A stretch of 64,000 nt of DNA, taken from assembly GCA_041663005.1 (NCBI GenBank), contig JBAZRK010000002.1, forward strand, positions 740 through 64,739. Reading direction: 5' to 3'. The notes below the pieces were generated by a model. It made no database searches and had not been told where the DNA came from. It saw nothing but the letters and a program-made list of their open reading frames with translations. The position numbers and the translations under genes are program-made. Below are positions 10,260 through 31,265 of this stretch, piece by piece. Source of the stretch: Minisyncoccota bacterium (GTDB lineage Bacteria; Patescibacteriota; Minisyncoccia; Phycocordibacterales; UBA9973). Each line of letters begins with the position of its first letter. The first letter of the stretch is position 1.

Positions 10260-11897
10260 TTAGTGCTGGTAGAAGCCTCGGGCCTCGGTGTCTGGTAGGA
10301 GGATTAAATTAACGCCGCGAGATTTGCAAAGCTCAATAACTTTTTCGTCGTTGACGGAGCCACTCGTCGAGAAAATTGTTTTAATTCCGCGATTTATGAG
10401 TACCTCTGGCGCATCCGGGAATGGGAAGAAGCTATCACTATAAGCTACGGCATTTTCTAAATCTGCCGGAAATTCGGACGTTGGACGTCCGAATTCTTGA
10501 CGTCCAACGTCCGAATTCTGGGAAAATCTCGCCGCATCATCGGCGCGAAGCAAGGCAAGCTTAGCTGCACCTACCCTGTCTTGCTGGCCAACGCCATTGC
10601 CATACAGTCGGCCATCTTTCACTATAGTTATAGTATTACTATTAGAAGTACTACCAACAGCCCAGGCTAAAATAACATCCTTTTCTTTTACCTCAGGCAC
10701 AAATGTATAGTTGGGTTGAACCATAAATCCTCCACGCACATATCGGAATCGCTTCGCTCCGTCGAGTGCCGACATCCCCGCTTTAGCTATCGCCCTGTTT
10801 TGTAAGAGTCTGCATTTACCTTTTTTGCGGGAAAGAATTTCTATTGCCTCAGGGGAGAATTCTGGTGCAGCAACGATGTCGAGCAAACGTCGCACACCTT
10901 CAGGCGAAAATTTATGAATTAGTTCGTCGGCAATTTTTTCATCCACAGGAAAATTAAGCATCACTGACCCGCCAAAAATTGCGCGCAGGTCCCCCTGAAG
11001 CATTCCATCGATAGCTTCTATATCGCTTGACCCCGTAGCCACACCGCAGGCGTTCCCGTGCTTGGCGCCGATGGCAACGAACGGAACTTCTCCCAGATTT
11101 TTCTCGAACCCCGCGCCGATGTGTGTCATTGTCTGCATCATTCTATCTACGTCACAAATGTTGTTGTAGCTCATCGGGCTTCCAGCCACGAGTTGCCAGT
11201 TCGCAATTGCAAGTTCGTCCACATTTTTAGTATCTAAATTTTTATACAAACTCGCTGGCTTCTGGTAGGCGTTCTCTCCGTACGCGCATTCGATATTCTT
11301 CTGCCCGAAAATTCCCTTGTACCCTTCCGCACTATGATACTCGCCGGAAATCGCGCCGTATCGCGCAATTATCATTTCCGCTTTTGCTGCTAAATTATTT
11401 AGAAATTCTTCACGATTTTCTTCACCGTCCTTGAGCCACTTTACCACCAGCGCCCGGTCCGAAACATCGCACACAGTTATGCGCCTGCCCTTGGCGCTGG
11501 CTCGGAGCATTGTGGGTCCGCCGATGTCGGTTTTCTCAATAACAGACTCGCGCGTAGCGTTCGGGTTTTTCGTTTCTTCCTCAAGCGGATACAAATCCAC
11601 GCACACAAGGTCAATCCAAGGAATTCCATATTTCTCAAGTTCGACGCGGTGCTCGGGAGTATCGAGTGCGAGCAATCCGCCGTGAATTTTCGGATTAAGA
11701 GTGAGGACTCGGTGCGAGAGAATCGGCGGCATTCCGGTAATTTCTGCGACGTCTGTCACCGGCAGGCCCGCCTCTGACAAGTGCTTCGCAGTGCCTCCGG
11801 AGGAAATTATTTTCCACCCCAGGCCCACCAACTCTTTGGCGAAATCGGCAATACCGTCTTTGTTATATACAGAAATTAATGCAGTTTTTTGGTTCAT
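10260..11897 (-). CDS. purH: Bifunctional AICAR formyltransferase / IMP cyclohydrolase PurH, carrying an in-frame repeat insertion
   Basis: N-terminal MGS-like/IMPCH domain and C-terminal AICARFT motifs (GIGAKHGNACG..., YSDSFFPFPD, C-terminal ...GFYQH). A 16-aa insert NSDVGRQEFGRPTSEF is encoded by 1.5 tandem REP copies. Confidence 0.93.
   Translation of the reverse strand: MNQKTALISVYNKDGIADFAKELVGLGWKIISSGGTAKHLSEAGLPVTDVAEITGMPPILSHRVLTLNPKIHGGLLALDTPEHRVELEKYGIPWIDLVCVDLYPLEEETKNPNATRESVIEKTDIGGPTMLRASAKGRRITVCDVSDRALVVKWLKDGEENREEFLNNLAAKAEMIIARYGAISGEYHSAEGYKGIFGQKNIECAYGENAYQKPASLYKNLDTKNVDELAIANWQLVAGSPMSYNNICDVDRMMQTMTHIGAGFEKNLGEVPFVAIGAKHGNACGVATGSSDIEAIDGMLQGDLRAIFGGSVMLNFPVDEKIADELIHKFSPEGVRRLLDIVAAPEFSPEAIEILSRKKGKCRLLQNRAIAKAGMSALDGAKRFRYVRGGFMVQPNYTFVPEVKEKDVILAWAVGSTSNSNTITIVKDGRLYGNGVGQQDRVGAAKLALLRADDAARFSQNSDVGRQEFGRPTSEFPADLENAVAYSDSFFPFPDAPEVLINRGIKTIFSTSGSVNDEKVIELCKSRGVNLILLPDTEARGFYQH
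10471..10518. repeat. REP-like palindromic repeat, 1.5 tandem copies, in frame inside purH
   Basis: AATTCGGACGTTGGACGTCCGAATTCTTGACGTCCAACGTCCGAATT. Core is 9-bp inverted arms TTCGGACGT/ACGTCCGAA. Confidence 0.85.
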
Positions 11898-11903
11898 AAT
11901 TAA

Positions 11904-11942
11904 AAATTAAAACACCTCTTAAGAGGTGTTTTAATTTTATGC
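11904..11942 (-). terminator. Intrinsic terminator AAAACACCTCTTAAGAGGTGTTTT downstream of rplL
   Basis: Perfect hairpin with T-runs on both strands. Confidence 0.6.
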
Positions 11943-11966
11943 TTTTTAGCTTACAAAAGCAATTTG

Positions 11967-12335
11967 TTATTTTAGCTCTATCTTACCACCAGCATCTTCG
12001 ATTTTCTTTTTCATCTCTTCAGCTTCTGCCTTCTTCATTCCCTCTTTTAGGGTGCTAGGAGCGGCGTCAACTAAATCTTTAGCTTCTTTCAAGCCCAAAC
12101 CGAGAGCTTCCTTCACAACTTTCATCACCGCGATTTTCTGTTCGCCGGCTGAAGCGAGGACAACGGTGAACGCATCCTTCTCTTCTGCTGCTTCGGCACC
12201 TGCTGCGCCACCTGCTGGAGCGGCAGCTACGGCTGCTGCAGAAACTCCGAACTTTTCTTCAATAGCCTTCACAACTTCATTCAATTCAAGAGTTGTAGCT
12301 TTGTCTAACCATTCCAATAATGTATCTTTGTTCAT
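11967..12335 (-). CDS. rplL: 50S ribosomal protein L7/L12
   Basis: Ala-rich hinge, then C-terminal ...[22 protein letters not shown]...KIELK. Confidence 0.95.
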
Positions 12336-12385
12336 AATTTTATCTTTTAATAATTAATAAATTTACCTGAAGCGAGCCTGTCGAA

Positions 12386-12865
12386 CTATTTCTTCTTCGA
12401 CACTTCGCTCAAAGCCAAAGCAAAACGTTGCATTGGGCTCTTCATCAAGAACGCCAACTTCGAAAGCAATACTTCCTTCGAAGGGATGGTTGCAATCTCA
12501 GTCATATACACTGCATCCACAAATTTTCCATTGAAAATTCCTCCAAGGATATTGAGCAATCCTTTGTTGGTTTTCTGAAAATTGTAAACTTCTCGTGGAG
12601 ATGATGTAGCGTCCTTAGAATACGCGATAGCTACCTCGCCACCAAGTTCTGGCAGTTCTCCTTCCGCCTTGCCTTCAAGGGCACGCTTCAAGAGAGTCTT
12701 TCGAGAAACTCGGTAGTTCACTCCTTTTTCTCGGAGCGCTGTTCGAAGTTTCGTTTCGTCGGCTACTTTAAGACCATGGAAATTAACAAAGACCAAAGAT
12801 TCGGAGTTTTTAATTGCTCCTTCCAAGTCCTTTATCATTTCCGCTTTTCGTGATTTTTGTAACAT
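12386..12865 (-). CDS. rplJ: 50S ribosomal protein L10
   Basis: Lies directly upstream of rplL. Typical L10 N-terminal region (KAEMIKDLEGAIKNSESLVFVNFHGLKVADETKLR). Confidence 0.88.
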   Translation of the reverse strand: MLQKSRKAEMIKDLEGAIKNSESLVFVNFHGLKVADETKLRTALREKGVNYRVSRKTLLKRALEGKAEGELPELGGEVAIAYSKDATSSPREVYNFQKTNKGLLNILGGIFNGKFVDAVYMTEIATIPSKEVLLSKLAFLMKSPMQRFALALSEVSKKK

Positions 12866-12890: not shown

Positions 12891-12973
12891 AACTTTTCGC
12901 AGGGGTTTCGAGACTGTCGAGTCGAGAATTTCAGGATTTTTTAAGCTTCAAAAAATCCGTACCGAAGAAAAGT
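12891..12973. repeat. ~85-nt hairpin-rich repeat, copy 1 (inverted relative to copy 2)
   Basis: Contains GGATTTTTTAAGCTTCAAAAAATCC and AGGGGTTTCGAG...CGAGAA. About 85% identical to the reverse complement of 29200..29298. Confidence 0.6.
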
Positions 12974-17402: not shown

Positions 17403-18101
17403 TCATTCGGACGTTGGACGTCCGAATGTGGGCGATGGGTCATCCTCGATATTTTCAAGGCCCCTCTCTGCGCGAACAAACGAAACAACGTTTAAACATT
17501 CTTTTTTATAATTTTCATTGCCTCCATAAAACTCGAGGACCTCTCCTGCTTCTTTCTCGCTAACTAGTATGAAATTTTTAGTATCGTATTCTTTTTCGCT
17601 AGACAAGACCAGGTGCATTCTTTCCTTTGGTATATTGTGAACCATATAATTAACATGCACGTAAGGACGAATTTTTAAAAAATAGGGCTCGTCGTCTATT
17701 AACTGTGATTTAAATCGCCCCTGGAACAAAGCACCGGTCCTGCTGTGTACCAGATTGAAGTATTTTGTATAACCTCCGAGCAAACGTTTGAAAAACTCGG
17801 AGATTCCGCCATCCACCTCCTGCTTTAAAATAAAATGAAAGTGGTTGGGGTTAAAGCAGTATGCAACAATAGACACCAGCGGATTCGGACGTCCAACGTC
17901 CGAATCCGCTGGTTTTTTGTGTTTTTTATCTTTAATGCTCCCTATCGGCACAACTGAGTTGAACTCTTTTGCGCTTAGGGCAAAACGGTCTAAGTCTTTC
18001 TTGCTGGAAAAAATATCCCGCTTATCCACACCCCTGTTGTAGATATGATAATACTCCCTGGTTACGAGAGGGTCTTTCCTCATATCTATATTATAAAGCA
18101 A
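17403..18101 (-). CDS. IS200-like HuH Y1 transposase, probable REP-associated tyrosine transposase (RAYT)
   Basis: YYHIYNRGVDKRDIF (COG1943/RayT-type N-terminus), HuH motif HFHFIL, GALFQGRF, and a C-terminal Tyr-bearing segment RPYVHVNYMVHNIPKE. Flanked by inverted REP copies. One REP is in frame internally (ADSDVGRPNP) and another forms the C-terminus and stop (FGRPTSE*). Confidence 0.7.
   Translation of the reverse strand: MLYNIDMRKDPLVTREYYHIYNRGVDKRDIFSSKKDLDRFALSAKEFNSVVPIGSIKDKKHKKPADSDVGRPNPLVSIVAYCFNPNHFHFILKQEVDGGISEFFKRLLGGYTKYFNLVHSRTGALFQGRFKSQLIDDEPYFLKIRPYVHVNYMVHNIPKERMHLVLSSEKEYDTKNFILVSEKEAGEVLEFYGGNENYKKECLNVVSFVRAERGLENIEDDPSPTFGRPTSE
17405..17427. repeat. REP copy (loop TTGGA) at the 3' end of the RAYT gene
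   Basis: ATTCGGACGTTGGACGTCCGAAT. Confidence 0.85.
17881..17907. repeat. REP copy inside the RAYT coding sequence
   Basis: GGATTCGGACGTCCAACGTCCGAATCC, a 27-nt perfect palindrome. Confidence 0.85.
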
Positions 18102-18119
18102 TTCGGACGTCCAACGTCC

Positions 18120-18144
18120 GAATTAAGCAACTTGGGTGTGGAAA
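18120..18144. repeat. REP copy immediately upstream of the RAYT start
   Basis: AATTCGGACGTCCAACGTCCGAATT. Confidence 0.85.
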
Positions 18145-18166
18145 ACTCCCCATTCGGACGTTGGAC

Positions 18167-18196
18167 GTCCGAATGTTAGCGGGAGCGACGAGAGTC
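18167..18196. repeat. REP copy (extended CCCCATTCGG...CCGAATG)
   Basis: Opposite loop orientation (TTGGA). Overlaps the 3' end of CDS 18176..18517. Confidence 0.85.
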
Positions 18197-18517
18197 GCGG
18201 CTGCGATGAGAACTTCGGGGTTGATAATCGTAATAGTTATAACTATCGTAACGGAAGTATTCGAAGCTACTGTCTTCCCAGACGTAAGGATTGTAGCCAG
18301 TGACGCGAGCTACAGGATAACGGTCGTAATTGTTACGACCATAATAGTCATAAGAATACCCAGTAACGTAAGCGTCGTTCCTGTAATAATTATTTCTACT
18401 ATAAGTATAGTAACTGTCCTCATAGTATGCCACGGCAGAGCTCGCCCCAGTTGCCACAAGCAATAACATAATAAGCACTAGTGTAAAAATTTTCCTCATA
18501 GTATATCTGCCTTGCAA
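18176..18517 (-). CDS. Small secreted Tyr/Asn/Arg-rich low-complexity protein
   Basis: Signal peptide MRKIFTLVLIMLLLVATGASSAVA, then YY..Y..NNYYRN... low complexity. Flanked by REPs. Confidence 0.4.
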   Translation of the reverse strand: MQGRYTMRKIFTLVLIMLLLVATGASSAVAYYEDSYYTYSRNNYYRNDAYVTGYSYDYYGRNNYDRYPVARVTGYNPYVWEDSSFEYFRYDSYNYYDYQPRSSHRSRDSRRSR

Positions 18518-18554: not shown

Positions 18555-18579
18555 CATTCGGACGTCCAACGTCCGAATG
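18555..18579. repeat. REP copy
   Basis: CATTCGGACGTCCAACGTCCGAATG. Confidence 0.85.
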
Positions 18580-18850: not shown

Positions 18851-18936
18851 CCCCATTCGGACGTCCAACGTCCGAATGGGGGTGATTTTTTGAGTTGAGG
18901 TAAAACAAAAAAACCACCCGTGAGGGGTGGTTTTTT
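18851..18936 (-). repeat. Composite ~90-bp repeat A: 31-nt perfect-palindrome REP (CCCCATTCGGACGTCCAACGTCCGAATGGGG) plus terminator CCACCCGTGAGGGGTGG-T6
   Basis: Direct repeat of 19576..19666 at about 85% identity. Acts as the terminator for the TA-like operon above it. Confidence 0.8.
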
Positions 18937-18940
18937 GAAG

Positions 18941-19177
18941 CTAGGCCATTAGAGGAGTACTGGAACTTATATTTATAGGAATCCCGTTTTTCAAATTTTC
19001 CTGAAGAGCGAGACCTTGCTTAGAAGAAGCATCTAAGAGCTCCATACCCACGACGTCTCCAGCAGAAGAAAGATCTACGACCAATCTGTCGTCTACCTTT
19101 ACTGATTTGGCAATTTTTTCACCATTTTTAATAGTGAAATAAATTGCATCTGCTACTGTATCATAATCTATTTTCAT
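18941..19177 (-). CDS. DUF2283-family small protein, antitoxin-like partner
   Basis: MKIDYDTVADAIYFTI...VDLSSAGDVVGMELLDAS matches the DUF2283 pattern (MKI.YD...D.LYI...G.ivGIEiL.AS). Confidence 0.75.
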   Translation of the reverse strand: MKIDYDTVADAIYFTIKNGEKIAKSVKVDDRLVVDLSSAGDVVGMELLDASSKQGLALQENLKNGIPINISSSTPLMA

Positions 19178-19575: not shown

Positions 19576-19666
19576 CCCCATTCGGACGTCCAACGTCCGA
19601 ATGGGGTGGTTTTGAGGGCTGGGGGGAGAAAACAAAAAGCCACCCGGTGAGGGGTGGCTTTTTTTA
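19576..19666 (-). repeat. Composite ~90-bp repeat B (REP plus terminator GCCACCCGGTGAGGGGTGGC-T7)
   Basis: Second copy of the composite module. Terminator for CDS 19711..21429. Confidence 0.8.
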
Positions 19667-19710
19667 CCTCGCCCACAAGTCCGACTTGTGGGAATGAGGA
19701 GTTAGCTGAT

Positions 19711-21585: not shown

Positions 21586-21726
21586 TAACCCCCACACCTT
21601 TCTTGGTATCGCTTTTTGTTCTGCTAAAGTAATTATTTACCGAAAAGTAGTTTTTAGATAGGTTGTAGTGATTGTGTAGATTGTATTAAAAAACAGAACA
21701 ATACAAAGAAAGGTGTGGGGGATAAC
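21586..21726. repeat. ~140-bp element with 20-bp terminal inverted repeats ATAACCCCCACACCTTTCTT / AAGAAAGGTGTGGGGGATAAC
   Basis: Nested inverted repeats (TTGTTCTG/CAGAACAA). Arms share the CCCCCACACC motif seen at 25296 and 31227. Confidence 0.5.
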
Positions 21727-24437: not shown

Positions 24438-25262
24438 CTAGGGACTTATTTTTATAGAATACTTACTCCAGCGTTTTTCGCCTATCTTATTAAGGACACC
24501 GTCGTGCACCATAGCAATGAGCTCACGCTGGAGGGTCTTCTCGCCTAGGGTACTGAGTGTATTATTTTTGTCCGTGAGATGAGAAGCTCTGTCCTTTATG
24601 TCCTTTATGGTAGCGCTACCGCCTGAGCTTTTAATTATATTCAGGATGTCTGCTCGTCGCTGTCCTTTTGAAACTTCAAAAGCGGCTCCGTGCATATGGG
24701 ACACGAGGGTGTGAGCCCCTGCTCCTCGAGCTCTCGGAATTTTGTCCGATATCTGGTGGATGGACTTCAGGAGAGTGCTCGCCTTCTGGACACCGAGACT
24801 CGTGGACCGACGGTCAACCTCGTAACCGCCGCGAGGCGAAGGAAGTTCGTTGCGGAAAAATTCGGACAAGTCTATTTGTTTATTTAAAATTTGGGGTTCG
24901 TTCAGAGACTCACGTATCGCTTGATCAAGCTCGTAAAATTCTTTCCTGAGGATATTGCAATTCATCGCGGACACGATATTCACGGCGGAAGCTATGTCTA
25001 AAAAGGACATTATTTCGGCAATCTTCCGGCAGGCCTTGGCTGGCTCTAAATTGATGTCCGATACAACTCCAGCGCCCAGTGTCCTTAATTTATTGCGTAG
25101 CGGTTCGTCACGGTCAATGATGTCCGTGACCATATACAAAGCAGTAATGAGCTTATTGGTCTTCTGGTATGAGATAGGAAAAGGGCTGTCCTTAAGGGCT
25201 ATGTCCGTATTGGATAGAGGGTCCTTTTGAGAGTCCGTGAGATTTTTTCCATCTCTTAACAT
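24438..25262 (-). CDS. Hypothetical protein with C-terminal winged-helix DNA-binding-like domain
   Basis: The ORF-track start at 25313 would overlap the 25296..25326 hairpin, so the Met at 25262 (MLRDGK...) is the more likely start. The C-terminal end ...TIKDIKDRASHLTDKNNTLSTLGEKTLQRELIAMVHDGVLNKIGEKRWSKY resembles a wHTH. Confidence 0.5.
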   Translation of the reverse strand: MLRDGKNLTDSQKDPLSNTDIALKDSPFPISYQKTNKLITALYMVTDIIDRDEPLRNKLRTLGAGVVSDINLEPAKACRKIAEIMSFLDIASAVNIVSAMNCNILRKEFYELDQAIRESLNEPQILNKQIDLSEFFRNELPSPRGGYEVDRRSTSLGVQKASTLLKSIHQISDKIPRARGAGAHTLVSHMHGAAFEVSKGQRRADILNIIKSSGGSATIKDIKDRASHLTDKNNTLSTLGEKTLQRELIAMVHDGVLNKIGEKRWSKYSIKISP

Positions 25263-25295
25263 TTGTCCATTATATATAGGACGTGGAAAAAGGCA

Positions 25296-25326
25296 AGCCC
25301 CCACACCAAACATTTTGGTGTGGGGG
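25296..25326. repeat. Perfect hairpin GCCCCCACACCAAA-CAT-TTTGGTGTGGGGGC (CCCCCACACC family) in the divergent promoter region
   Basis: 14-bp stem. A half-site GTGTGGGGG recurs at 25366. Confidence 0.55.
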
Positions 25327-25551
25327 CAAGGTCCTTTATGGTTAATAAGTGTGGGGGTATAGGACAGCGAAATTTAATGTCAGTGTGGCTATACTTAAAT
25401 ACGGACTACGGAGCGCGACTGGCGCGAGTCTTGAGAAATTTCTTAGCAAAGAAATATTCGTGCCGTATTTAAGTATGGGCTCGCTGTAAAACAATAAAAA
25501 AATATTATCCGTGGATTTAATAGCAACTCATGTTTGTGGTAGAATATGTAA

Positions 25552-29199: not shown

Positions 29200-29298
29200 A
29201 AAAAATATCTTTTTGCCGGTACGGATTTTTTGAAGCTTAAAAAATCCTGAAGTTTTCGCTCCGTCGAGCTCAAAACCCCTTAAAAAGATATTTTTTGT
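29200..29298. repeat. ~85-nt hairpin-rich repeat, copy 2, enclosed by perfect 15-bp inverted repeats AAAAAATATCTTTTT / AAAAAGATATTTTTT
   Basis: Downstream of recA. Matches the reverse complement of 12891..12973. Confidence 0.6.
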
Positions 29299-29926: not shown

Positions 29927-29996
29927 AGACGTCGGACAACAGGAATTCTAGTTGTCCGACGTCTCTTCGTTTTTCACGGACGTCCAACGTCCGAAA
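29927..29996. terminator. efp terminator hairpin AGACGTCGGACAAC...GTTGTCCGACGTCT followed by a partial REP (CGGACGTCCAACGTCCGAAA)
   Basis: Perfect 14-bp stem. REP-related arms (GACGTCGGAC). Lies between the convergent efp and rpsR genes. Confidence 0.6.
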
Positions 29997-30001
29997 TTTA
30001 T

Positions 30002-30202
30002 CTATTTAACTACGAAAGGTAGAAGGCACATAAAGCGAGCATGCTTAACTGCGGCGGCCAGGGCGCGCTGATTCTTGGAAGTAACTCCAGAACGCTTGTG
30101 GCTCACTATCTTGCCGGAAGGATTTAGAAACTTTTTCAAAATTTCTACGTCCTTGTAGTCGATGTATTTTATATTGTTGGCTGAAAAGTAATCTTGTTTC
30201 AT
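30002..30202 (-). CDS. rpsR: 30S ribosomal protein S18
   Basis: ...YIDYKDVEILKKFLNPSGKIVSHKRSGVTSKNQRALAAAVKHARFMCLLPF. Confidence 0.9.
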   Translation of the reverse strand: MKQDYFSANNIKYIDYKDVEILKKFLNPSGKIVSHKRSGVTSKNQRALAAAVKHARFMCLLPFVVK

Positions 30203-31199: not shown

Positions 31200-31226
31200 A
31201 CTAGCAAAAAGGCCTTAAAATGTAAA

Positions 31227-31265
31227 CCCCCACACCTATTTTTTAGCTGAAATAGGTGTGGGGGT
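31227..31265 (-). terminator. Hairpin CCCCCACACCTATTT...AAATAGGTGTGGGGG (CCCCCACACC family), likely the tatD terminator
   Basis: 13-bp stem followed by a T-run on minus. Confidence 0.5.

Follow-up and report, generated by a model that had tools for sequence, protein, structure and literature searches.

Introduction

In Pseudomonas fluorescens and E. coli, doublets of REPs (repetitive extragenic palindromic sequences) form hairpins, known as REPINs, and are associated with a single-copy REP-associated tyrosine transposase (RAYT) (PMC3116915, PMC5581495). REPs and REPINs have been defined as extragenic, and translated palindromic inserts have been known mainly from Rickettsia. In this study we analysed a 64,000-nt stretch of DNA (hereafter the window) from a Minisyncoccota bacterium (assembly GCA_041663005.1, contig JBAZRK010000002.1, positions 740 to 64,739), in which the purH gene contains a short palindromic segment that is translated as a part of the protein. 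The segment is probably an inverted doublet of the REP associated with a RAYT-like gene in the same window, i.e., a miniature REPIN, which was inserted into a loop of PurH and is translated in frame.

Several other described elements enter coding sequences (CDSs). The classical case is that of the Rickettsia palindromic elements (RPEs), which are inserted without loss of frame in a wide range of unrelated housekeeping genes of a reduced genome, and their peptide segments have been judged compatible with the fold and function of the host protein (PMC10969869). In the definition of PMC3733652, GTAG and CGTC are terminal tags of REPs; no dedicated transposase seems to accompany the CGTC-tagged families, RPE-4 and RPE-6 among them (PMC3733652). 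Intragenic GTAG/CGTC REPs, both single and as dimers, have been described from open reading frames (ORFs) of Opitutus terrae, R. conorii, Thauera and others, where they contribute 20–30 amino acids, often to replication and repair genes (uvrA/uvrB, dnaE), and a loop or linker position has been suggested for them (PMC3733652). Small non-autonomous elements that fuse in frame with host ORFs are also known among the bacterial MITEs (miniature transposable elements with inverted repeats), such as ERIC, BOX and those of Anabaena (PMC10969869). We searched the accessible literature on the candidate phyla radiation (CPR), Patescibacteria and Parcubacteria for RAYT and for inserts that are palindromic or in frame, without any relevant result, which is not proof of absence.

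The locus described here resembles the REPIN-RAYT system in its short palindromic REPs, in an inverted doublet that forms one hairpin with compensatory changes, and in the inverted REPs on either side of a Y1/HUH transposase-like gene. It differs from that system in several respects. The doublet is 45–47 nt long, whereas the REPs of the REPINs in P. fluorescens SBW25 are commonly spaced 71 or 110 bp apart (PMC3116915), and it is found almost only in coding sequence, whereas REPINs are extragenic by definition. In addition, the RAYT-like gene has a cognate REP within its own CDS, about 10 REP copies were counted within the 64-kb window, the terminal GTAG is missing and the protein falls under the NCBIfam cut-off for RAYT. 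With the RPEs the element shares its in-frame occurrence in many unrelated housekeeping genes of a reduced genome. However, RPEs are about 100–150 bp long (30–50 amino acids), occur in Alphaproteobacteria and presumably belong to an unrelated sequence family, whereas the present element encodes 15–16 residues, is tied to a RAYT-like gene and is set apart by its size and its Paceibacteria host. As with the intragenic GTAG/CGTC REPs, the hosts of the present family include replication and repair genes (uvrB, dnaG, topA). In those genomes, however, the intragenic copies form only a small fraction of a large extragenic family (PMC3733652), whereas the doublet studied here is predominantly intragenic, is read in a single frame, belongs to the CPR and has no terminal tag, CGTC lying inside the stem. 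Finally, MITEs, which are derived from DDE insertion sequences, are bounded by terminal inverted repeats and accompanied by target-site duplications, whereas the present element is a hairpin over its whole length, and no such duplication was observed. The original prediction had regarded REP copies in coding sequence as unusual. This is true of the doublet insofar as it is not extragenic as REPINs are, but in-frame intragenic REPs had already been published (PMC3733652, PMC10969869).

The in-frame hairpin of purH

The PurH protein of the window matches the Pfam domains MGS (5.8e-16) and AICARFT_IMPCHas (1.6e-45), and with its AlphaFold2 (AF2) model Foldseek retrieved PurH/ATIC structures (3ZZM, 1G8M, 4EHI and 1ZCZ) as the top PDB structures, at E values of about 1e-36 for 3ZZM and 1G8M. 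Every column that is invariant across 33 homologues is kept, including K279/H280 and the SDSFFPF motif, and the gene is under strong conservation, with dN much lower than dS.

The coding strand of purH (10517..10471) reads AATTCGGACGTTGGACGTC-AAGAATTCG-GACGTCCAACGTCCGAATT, a hairpin with 19-nt arms of 100% complementarity and a 9-nt centre, for which a folding energy of -23.6 kcal/mol (z -7.7) was calculated as single-stranded DNA. It is composed of two REP units in inverted orientation, with the loops TGG and CCA and with degenerate inner arms. The segment had earlier been read as 1.5 tandem copies of a palindrome at 10471-10518; in fact it is a single 47-nt hairpin of two inverted units, and the coordinates were one base off, the palindrome occupying 10471-10517 and the 16 codons (N461-F476, NSDVGRQEFGRPTSEF) occupying 10470-10517, i.e., the palindrome and base 10470. 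The sequence and frame of the insert were described correctly, as was its place in purH just before SDSFFPF. The insert is embedded as RFSQ-NSDVGRQEFGRPTSEF-PADLENAVAYSDSFFPF, directly upstream of ADLENAVAYSDSFFPF and ahead of SDSFFPF, and conceptual translation of the region gives the stretch SDVGRQEFGRPTSE. The length of the palindrome is not a multiple of three, and removal of either 45 nt or 48 nt restores the frame.

In the AF2 model (mean predicted local distance difference test score, pLDDT, 76.7; predicted template modelling score 0.58) the insert lies between the helix 441-461 and the strand 484-487, with pLDDT below 50 at residues 463-474. This low-confidence loop agrees with the surface loop that had been expected from the sequence, and judging from the model the insert probably occupies a permissive surface loop as an extension of 15–16 residues rich in Gly, Pro, Ser, Thr, Asp and Arg. 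It had also been proposed that the repeat is free of stop codons in both orientations and that this explains its persistence. The single 23-nt REP is indeed open in all six frames, but the purH doublet has a TGA in one antisense frame. Freedom from stops probably contributes to persistence, but a length divisible by three, the loop position and one strongly preferred frame would matter too.

The REP family and the RAYT-like gene of the window

The 23-nt REP unit is ATTCGGACGT-NNN-ACGTCCGAAT. A search of the window with the 25-nt unit gave 10 matches against 0.00 expected, and the pattern GGACGT-N3-ACGTCC likewise gave 10 matches against 0.06 expected. Besides the purH doublet, the REP occurs eight more times (Table 1). 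Seven of these copies are grouped at 17.4–19.7 kb near the ORF 17403..18083 (-), and the single REPs are mostly intergenic. That REPs lie in this region and also within the RAYT-like ORF (17883-17905) had been predicted, and they were located there; the shared sequence bears out that the purH insert is of the same kind as the repeats around and inside this gene. The ends of the window copies carry neither the GTAG nor the CGTC terminal tag, CGTC being found only inside the stem. A scan of the whole window with Rfam detected a 23S rRNA fragment only and nothing at the REPs, and ARAGORN found no tRNA in the window. Two of the intergenic copies belong to a composite repeat of about 100 nt (18851-18948 and 19576-19675, about 78% identity), which consists of the REP, a spacer of about 40 nt and a terminator-like hairpin AAAAACCACCC..GGGTGGTTTTT.

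Table 1. Positions of purH, the RAYT-like gene and the REP copies, with the evidence on which each was assigned (loci on other contigs are designated L).
Feature	Position	Strand	Basis
purH, bifunctional AICAR formyltransferase / IMP cyclohydrolase, intact, 545 aa	10260..11897	-	Pfam, Foldseek and invariant columns
REP doublet (REPIN-like hairpin), 47 nt, in frame within purH	10471..10517	-	sequence, fold
RAYT-like gene for a Y1 (HUH) transposase; 226 aa when started at the ATG at 18083, mechanical ORF up to 18101	17403..18083	-	weak profiles, motifs
REP copy at the 3' end of the RAYT-like gene, giving the final codons FGRPTSE	17405..17427		sequence
REP copy within the RAYT-like CDS, encoding SDVGRPN; extended hairpin 17875-17913, z -8.9	17883..17905		sequence, fold
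REP copy 17 nt upstream of the RAYT-like start codon, inverted relative to 17405-17427	18101..18123		sequence
Intergenic REP copy just past the stop of ORF 18176..18517 (-)	18152..18174		sequence
Intergenic REP copy	18556..18578		sequence
Intergenic REP copy in the composite repeat (about 100 nt) with terminator-like hairpin (18851-18948)	18855..18877		repeat families D8, D12
Intergenic REP copy in the second composite-repeat copy (19576-19675)	19580..19602		repeat families D8, D12
Partial REP, left arm truncated, intergenic between efp and ORF 30002..30202 (-)	29979..29997		sequence
REP hairpins embedded in RAYT-like genes at other loci	L012 3848-3866; L014 2534-2552; L016 6231-6249; L063 2683-2710

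The RAYT-like protein scores 23.4 bits against Pfam Y1_Tnp (cut-off 23) and 24 bits against NCBIfam REP_Tyr_transpos, which misses the cut-off of 80. More than 3000 homologues were found at E ≤ 0.001, some of which carry the JGI name 'REP element-mobilizing transposase RayT'; the best 120 are about 219 amino acids long and 67–80% identical, the same range of identity as for the PurH homologues. The residues H81-F82-H83 and Y141 are invariant among 28 homologues, and their catalytic role is assumed by analogy with the family. Sequence searches of the PDB with the protein and with the 28-sequence profile gave nothing at E ≤ 1, and the AF2 model (mean pLDDT 46.7) was unusable. Assignment to the RAYT family thus rests on motifs, context and weak profile matches.

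The gene has inverted REPs on both sides (17405-17427 with the loop TGG, 18101-18123 with CCA), and the same arrangement REP-RAYT(REP)-REP was found in L012, L014, L016, L046 and L063, which makes six loci together with the window. A REP-derived peptide occupies one internal site in nearly all of the best 120 homologues, as SDV[GQ]RP in 60 and as SGV[GQ]HP in 33 of them. The extended stem within the CDS shows compensatory changes (CCAGCGG/CCGCTGG in the window, CCAGAGG/CCTCTGG in L012 and ACAAGAGG/CCTCTTGT in L016), and the embedded REP is of the same type as the REPs flanking that gene.

The same doublet in other genes

When species-representative genomes were scanned for exact copies of the single REP, 11 loci were recovered, in metagenome-assembled genomes labelled as Paceibacterota, Paceibacteria, Nomurabacteria, Campbellbacteria and Saccharibacteria. 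In metagenomes, an exact scan for GGACGTTGGACGTC-N9-GACGTCCAACGTCC gave 44 loci, which together with the earlier loci represent 33 distinct doublet contexts, and the doublet lies inside coding sequence in about 32 of these. Exact scans of viral contigs gave 0 matches, whether with the single REP or with the doublet.

At least 17 gene/site combinations other than the purH site of the window hold an in-frame doublet in related Paceibacteria. According to Pfam, the host proteins include PurL, GatB, GatC, a PBP2 transpeptidase, DnaG, PyrF, the alpha/beta and gamma subunits of ATP synthase, RNase J, a TrxB-like reductase, MreC, TopA, ParB and a class-V aminotransferase (Aminotran_5), and single REPs are hosted by UvrB and RAYT genes. 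The Pfam domain alignment runs across the insert in at least 10 cases. The frame xDVGRPxxGRPTSx is used in 29 of the 33 doublet contexts, and about 17 of 20 independent gene/site combinations share one frame (P ~3e-6 if the three frames were used equally). No other gene is hit nearly as often as PurH, which accounts for three sites and about 9 of the 33 contexts; this frequency might be due to local hopping out of the RAYT locus.

PurH orthologues with and without the element

For the comparison of PurH we used the 33-homologue alignment and the 120 closest homologues (67–80% identity, designated P0001–P0120). The DVGR..GRPTS peptide family was missing from 108 of the 120, many of which have a minimal linker there, and the stretch from RADDAA.F to ADLENA ranges from 0 to about 40 residues among the homologues. 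The empty-site orthologue P0010 (L067) has no palindrome at the site. The distribution of carriers is patchy: an element of the window type occupies the same site in P0003, P0014 and P0017 (L004, L054), in P0066, in L040 and in P0082. A second PurH loop, after PASLY, holds the doublet in P0109 (L005-7), L019 and L031, and a third, before IEAVDK, in L041 and L017. The expectation that the insertion is lineage-specific is thus borne out by its absence from most close homologues, but not by its presence at the same site in divergent orthologues and at two other loops.

Every peptide-carrying PurH orthologue whose DNA was read has the palindrome, so that none was seen to encode the segment without it. 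In P0071 (L041 4049-4117) the element at the first site lacks 15 nt, removed by an in-frame deletion between two AATTCGG direct repeats, and a single REP is left (NSEFGRPTSEL); at the sequence level this reads as an example of doublet decay without loss of frame. Each replicate of the bootstrapped neighbour-joining trees requires 5–7 state changes for the carriers at the first site, but with all pairs 73–85% identical the topology is star-like, so that repeated independent gains in PurH are no more than suggested. When filled and empty orthologous sites were compared, no target-site duplication was seen, the loops being highly diverged. The complementary outer flanks were considered as a target-site duplication and rejected, since they are inverted and not direct; they may instead reflect a preference for palindromic targets that existed beforehand.

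The PurH proteins P0001–P0120 also have four hypervariable loops with other recurrent peptides, among them xRQDLx, SRTVLD/SKMPFDT, VGHL..CPTPD, NSAALLHPSGGTFRxENF, NFDSGRFRPEGGGKQQN and DAFVQSLGPSLRSATPS. Two such loop peptides of the PurH of L005 (6243-6359 and 6525-6590) are encoded by strong DNA hairpins (z -5.7 and -5.8). Because both of the L005 peptides tested are hairpins, several families of palindromic elements seem to colonise the same PurH loops.

Constraint on the element acts at the nucleic-acid level

We compared the purH of the window with those of L004, L040 and L054, whose proteins are 77–78% identical to it outside the element. Identity at third codon positions was 87–100% within the element and about 39–42% in the rest of purH; L040 and L054 had been recovered by exact arms and are biased in this respect, and L004, like L005, was recovered by protein homology. 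The four base pairs beyond the searched core are of the Watson-Crick type in 29, 25, 23 and 19 of the 33 contexts, with several pair types, and the next stem position outward is random (7 of 33). Near-perfect palindromes (z -7.6 to -9.6) were likewise found in P0024 (with two inserts) and P0082, variants that had been selected by peptide alone. Moreover, the residue before DVGR (S, P, A or T) covaries with the residue after GRPTS (E or D, G, A, V) in the combinations S..E/D, P..G, A..A and T..V, which follows from base pairing of the outer stem positions. The high third-codon identity and the covariation of the outer stem pairs imply that the constraint acts on the nucleic acid and not on the peptide.

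These features could alternatively mean that the hairpin or its peptide is a retained functional module and not tolerated selfish DNA, such as an RNA/DNA structure within the gene (a site for RNase or RAYT, a translation pause) or a selected loop motif. Apart from the synonymous conservation between deeply diverged orthologues and the covarying stem, the use of one frame in 29 of 33 contexts and the maintenance of the RAYT-internal REP in nearly all of the best 120 homologues would be in accordance with such a module. However, the element occurs in unrelated proteins at unrelated loops, most PurH orthologues either do without it or have unrelated palindromic inserts at the same loop, and in L041 it could lose 15 nt in frame. 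In addition, the residues next to the core vary as base pairing predicts, unlike those of a protein motif, and no Rfam family corresponds to the element. We therefore consider a functional module unlikely, but it stays alive because a neutral relic does not explain the deep synonymous conservation.

The PurH insert and the RAYT-like gene carry the same type of REP

In the window, REPs of the CGGACGT type are found in both the RAYT-like gene and PurH. On contig Ga0265292_1000088 the RAYT gene carries, and is flanked by, CGGGTGT-TGG-ACACCCG, and the PurH of this contig, 6 kb from RAYT, has a doublet of GGTGTTGGACACC (SGVGHLKRCPTPD). At the peptide level, the type of the PurH insert was the same as that of RAYT in 4 of 4 same-contig pairs; as there are only two common types, this agreement is suggestive and not decisive. 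The RAYT-like gene lies 5.5–6 kb from purH in the window, on Ga0265292_1000088 (L063/L064) and on Ga0209542_10001884 (L046), and rplJ-rplL adjoins purH both in the window (10260-12865) and on Ga0265292_1000088. The proximity of RAYT and purH on three contigs is consistent with vertical inheritance.

It could be argued that the element was spread or maintained without RAYT, by recombination or gene conversion between copies, template-switch (quasipalindrome) repair or another transposase, so that the link with RAYT is one of position. Judged by curated thresholds, the assignment to the RAYT family is weak, arm-to-arm correction alone would yield the observed covariation, and neither pattern had an exact match in the viral-contig collection. 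Yet the REP-RAYT(REP)-REP arrangement recurs in six loci, the REP type of PurH is the type found in and around RAYT on the same contig, and the HUH and Tyr residues are invariant, which makes an origin independent of RAYT rather improbable. An assembly or sequencing artefact (palindromes can be library artefacts, e.g., hairpin chimeras) or an ancestral linker that merely resembles the repeat (linker length is variable in the PurH family) can practically be dismissed, since the purH CDS with the insert shows 0/1638 nt differences in independently assembled contigs from three different samples (ERZ27249449, SRR18595301 and SRR6484324), the same nucleotide element is present in orthologues and in unrelated genes, and the chance expectation is 0.

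Origin and persistence of the element

The probable origin of the purH segment from a RAYT-associated REP doublet could be envisaged as follows. Two inverted copies of the 23-nt REP would form a single hairpin of 45–47 nt that entered a permissive loop of PurH. RAYT may have spread such copies via single-stranded hairpin DNA, as proposed for REPIN/RAYT (PMC3116915, PMC5581495). With little intergenic DNA available, the copies that survived would be those with a length divisible by three, without stop codons, located in loops and translated as xDVGRPxxGRPTSx, the benign frame. After fixation they would be passed on vertically, and the palindrome could be kept up by RAYT recognition, by arm-to-arm correction or by gene conversion.

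Several observations speak against this explanation. Divergent orthologues share the site and the junctions, which fits old vertical inheritance, and a neutral selfish relic should have decayed at synonymous sites, which the element has not. Gains and losses cannot be reliably counted because the PurH tree is star-like, and neither a transposition event nor an empty-site polymorphism nor a target-site signature was observed. The palindrome of 47 nt is not divisible by three, so that 45, 47+1 or 48 nt are all candidates for the inserted unit. The metagenome scan required exact arms of 14+14 nt and is therefore biased towards conserved copies, and many of its doublet loci are orthologous and hence not independent. 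In addition, the RAYT-like protein is marginal in Pfam, below the NCBIfam cut-off and without a PDB match, and its AF2 model is unusable.

A broader proposal, which we put forward tentatively and with somewhat more doubt than belief, concerns Paceibacteria (CPR) as a whole. RAYT-associated doublets might be mainly residents of coding sequence in these bacteria: hairpins of 15 codons, read in one frame in loops of core enzymes, long inherited and still palindromic, that co-evolve with a 'master' REP embedded in RAYT and constitute a major source of hypervariable loops. Here the other palindromic families of the same PurH loops are included as a source of length variation in CPR proteins.

Other repeats and palindromes of the window

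A 72-nt element with the hairpin GGATTTTTTGAAGCTTAAAAAATCC is present upstream of rplJ (12901-12972, -) and of efp (29209-29280, +), the copies being 82% identical. It has no Rfam or tRNA match and could be either a promoter/leader common to both genes or a further repeat. Directly after the efp stop codon there is a 38-nt palindrome (29927-29964, AGACGTCGGACAAC-AGGAATTCT-AGTTGTCCGACGTCT, z -7.6), which adjoins the partial REP at 29979 and has the centre GGAATTC, as have some doublets. A perfect 36-nt palindrome (11903-11938, AAAATTAAAACACCTCTT/AAGAGGTGTTTTAATTTT) is located in the 69 nt that separate the stop of rplL from the start of purH. A second palindromic family, CCCCCACACC...GGTGTGGGGG, was found at 21586-21620, 21690-21724, 25297-25327 and 31226-31265; two of these lie between genes, and another overlaps ORF 24438..25313 (-) at its 5' end. 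This family may represent terminators or another REP-like family. Downstream of the 5' fragment of the 23S rRNA (1-711, -) there is a 76-nt direct repeat with a hairpin (1018-1093 and 2219-2294, 79% identity).

Significance

The present results describe a RAYT-linked REP family that lies mostly within core genes of an uncultured, genome-reduced phylum. The features that set it apart are the CPR host, the very small doublet, the predominantly intragenic location, the use of one frame and the cognate REP embedded in the RAYT gene, and it bears clear signs of constraint at the nucleic-acid level inside coding sequence. In practice, such inserts affect how CPR proteins are annotated and aligned and how their structures are predicted. 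The presence of a REP in nearly every RAYT homologue raises the question of how the specificity of the transposase and the sequence of the repeat co-evolve. The explanation proposed here can be tested, and it would account both for the persistence of selfish hairpins where non-coding space is lacking and for the short loop insertions by which CPR orthologues differ.

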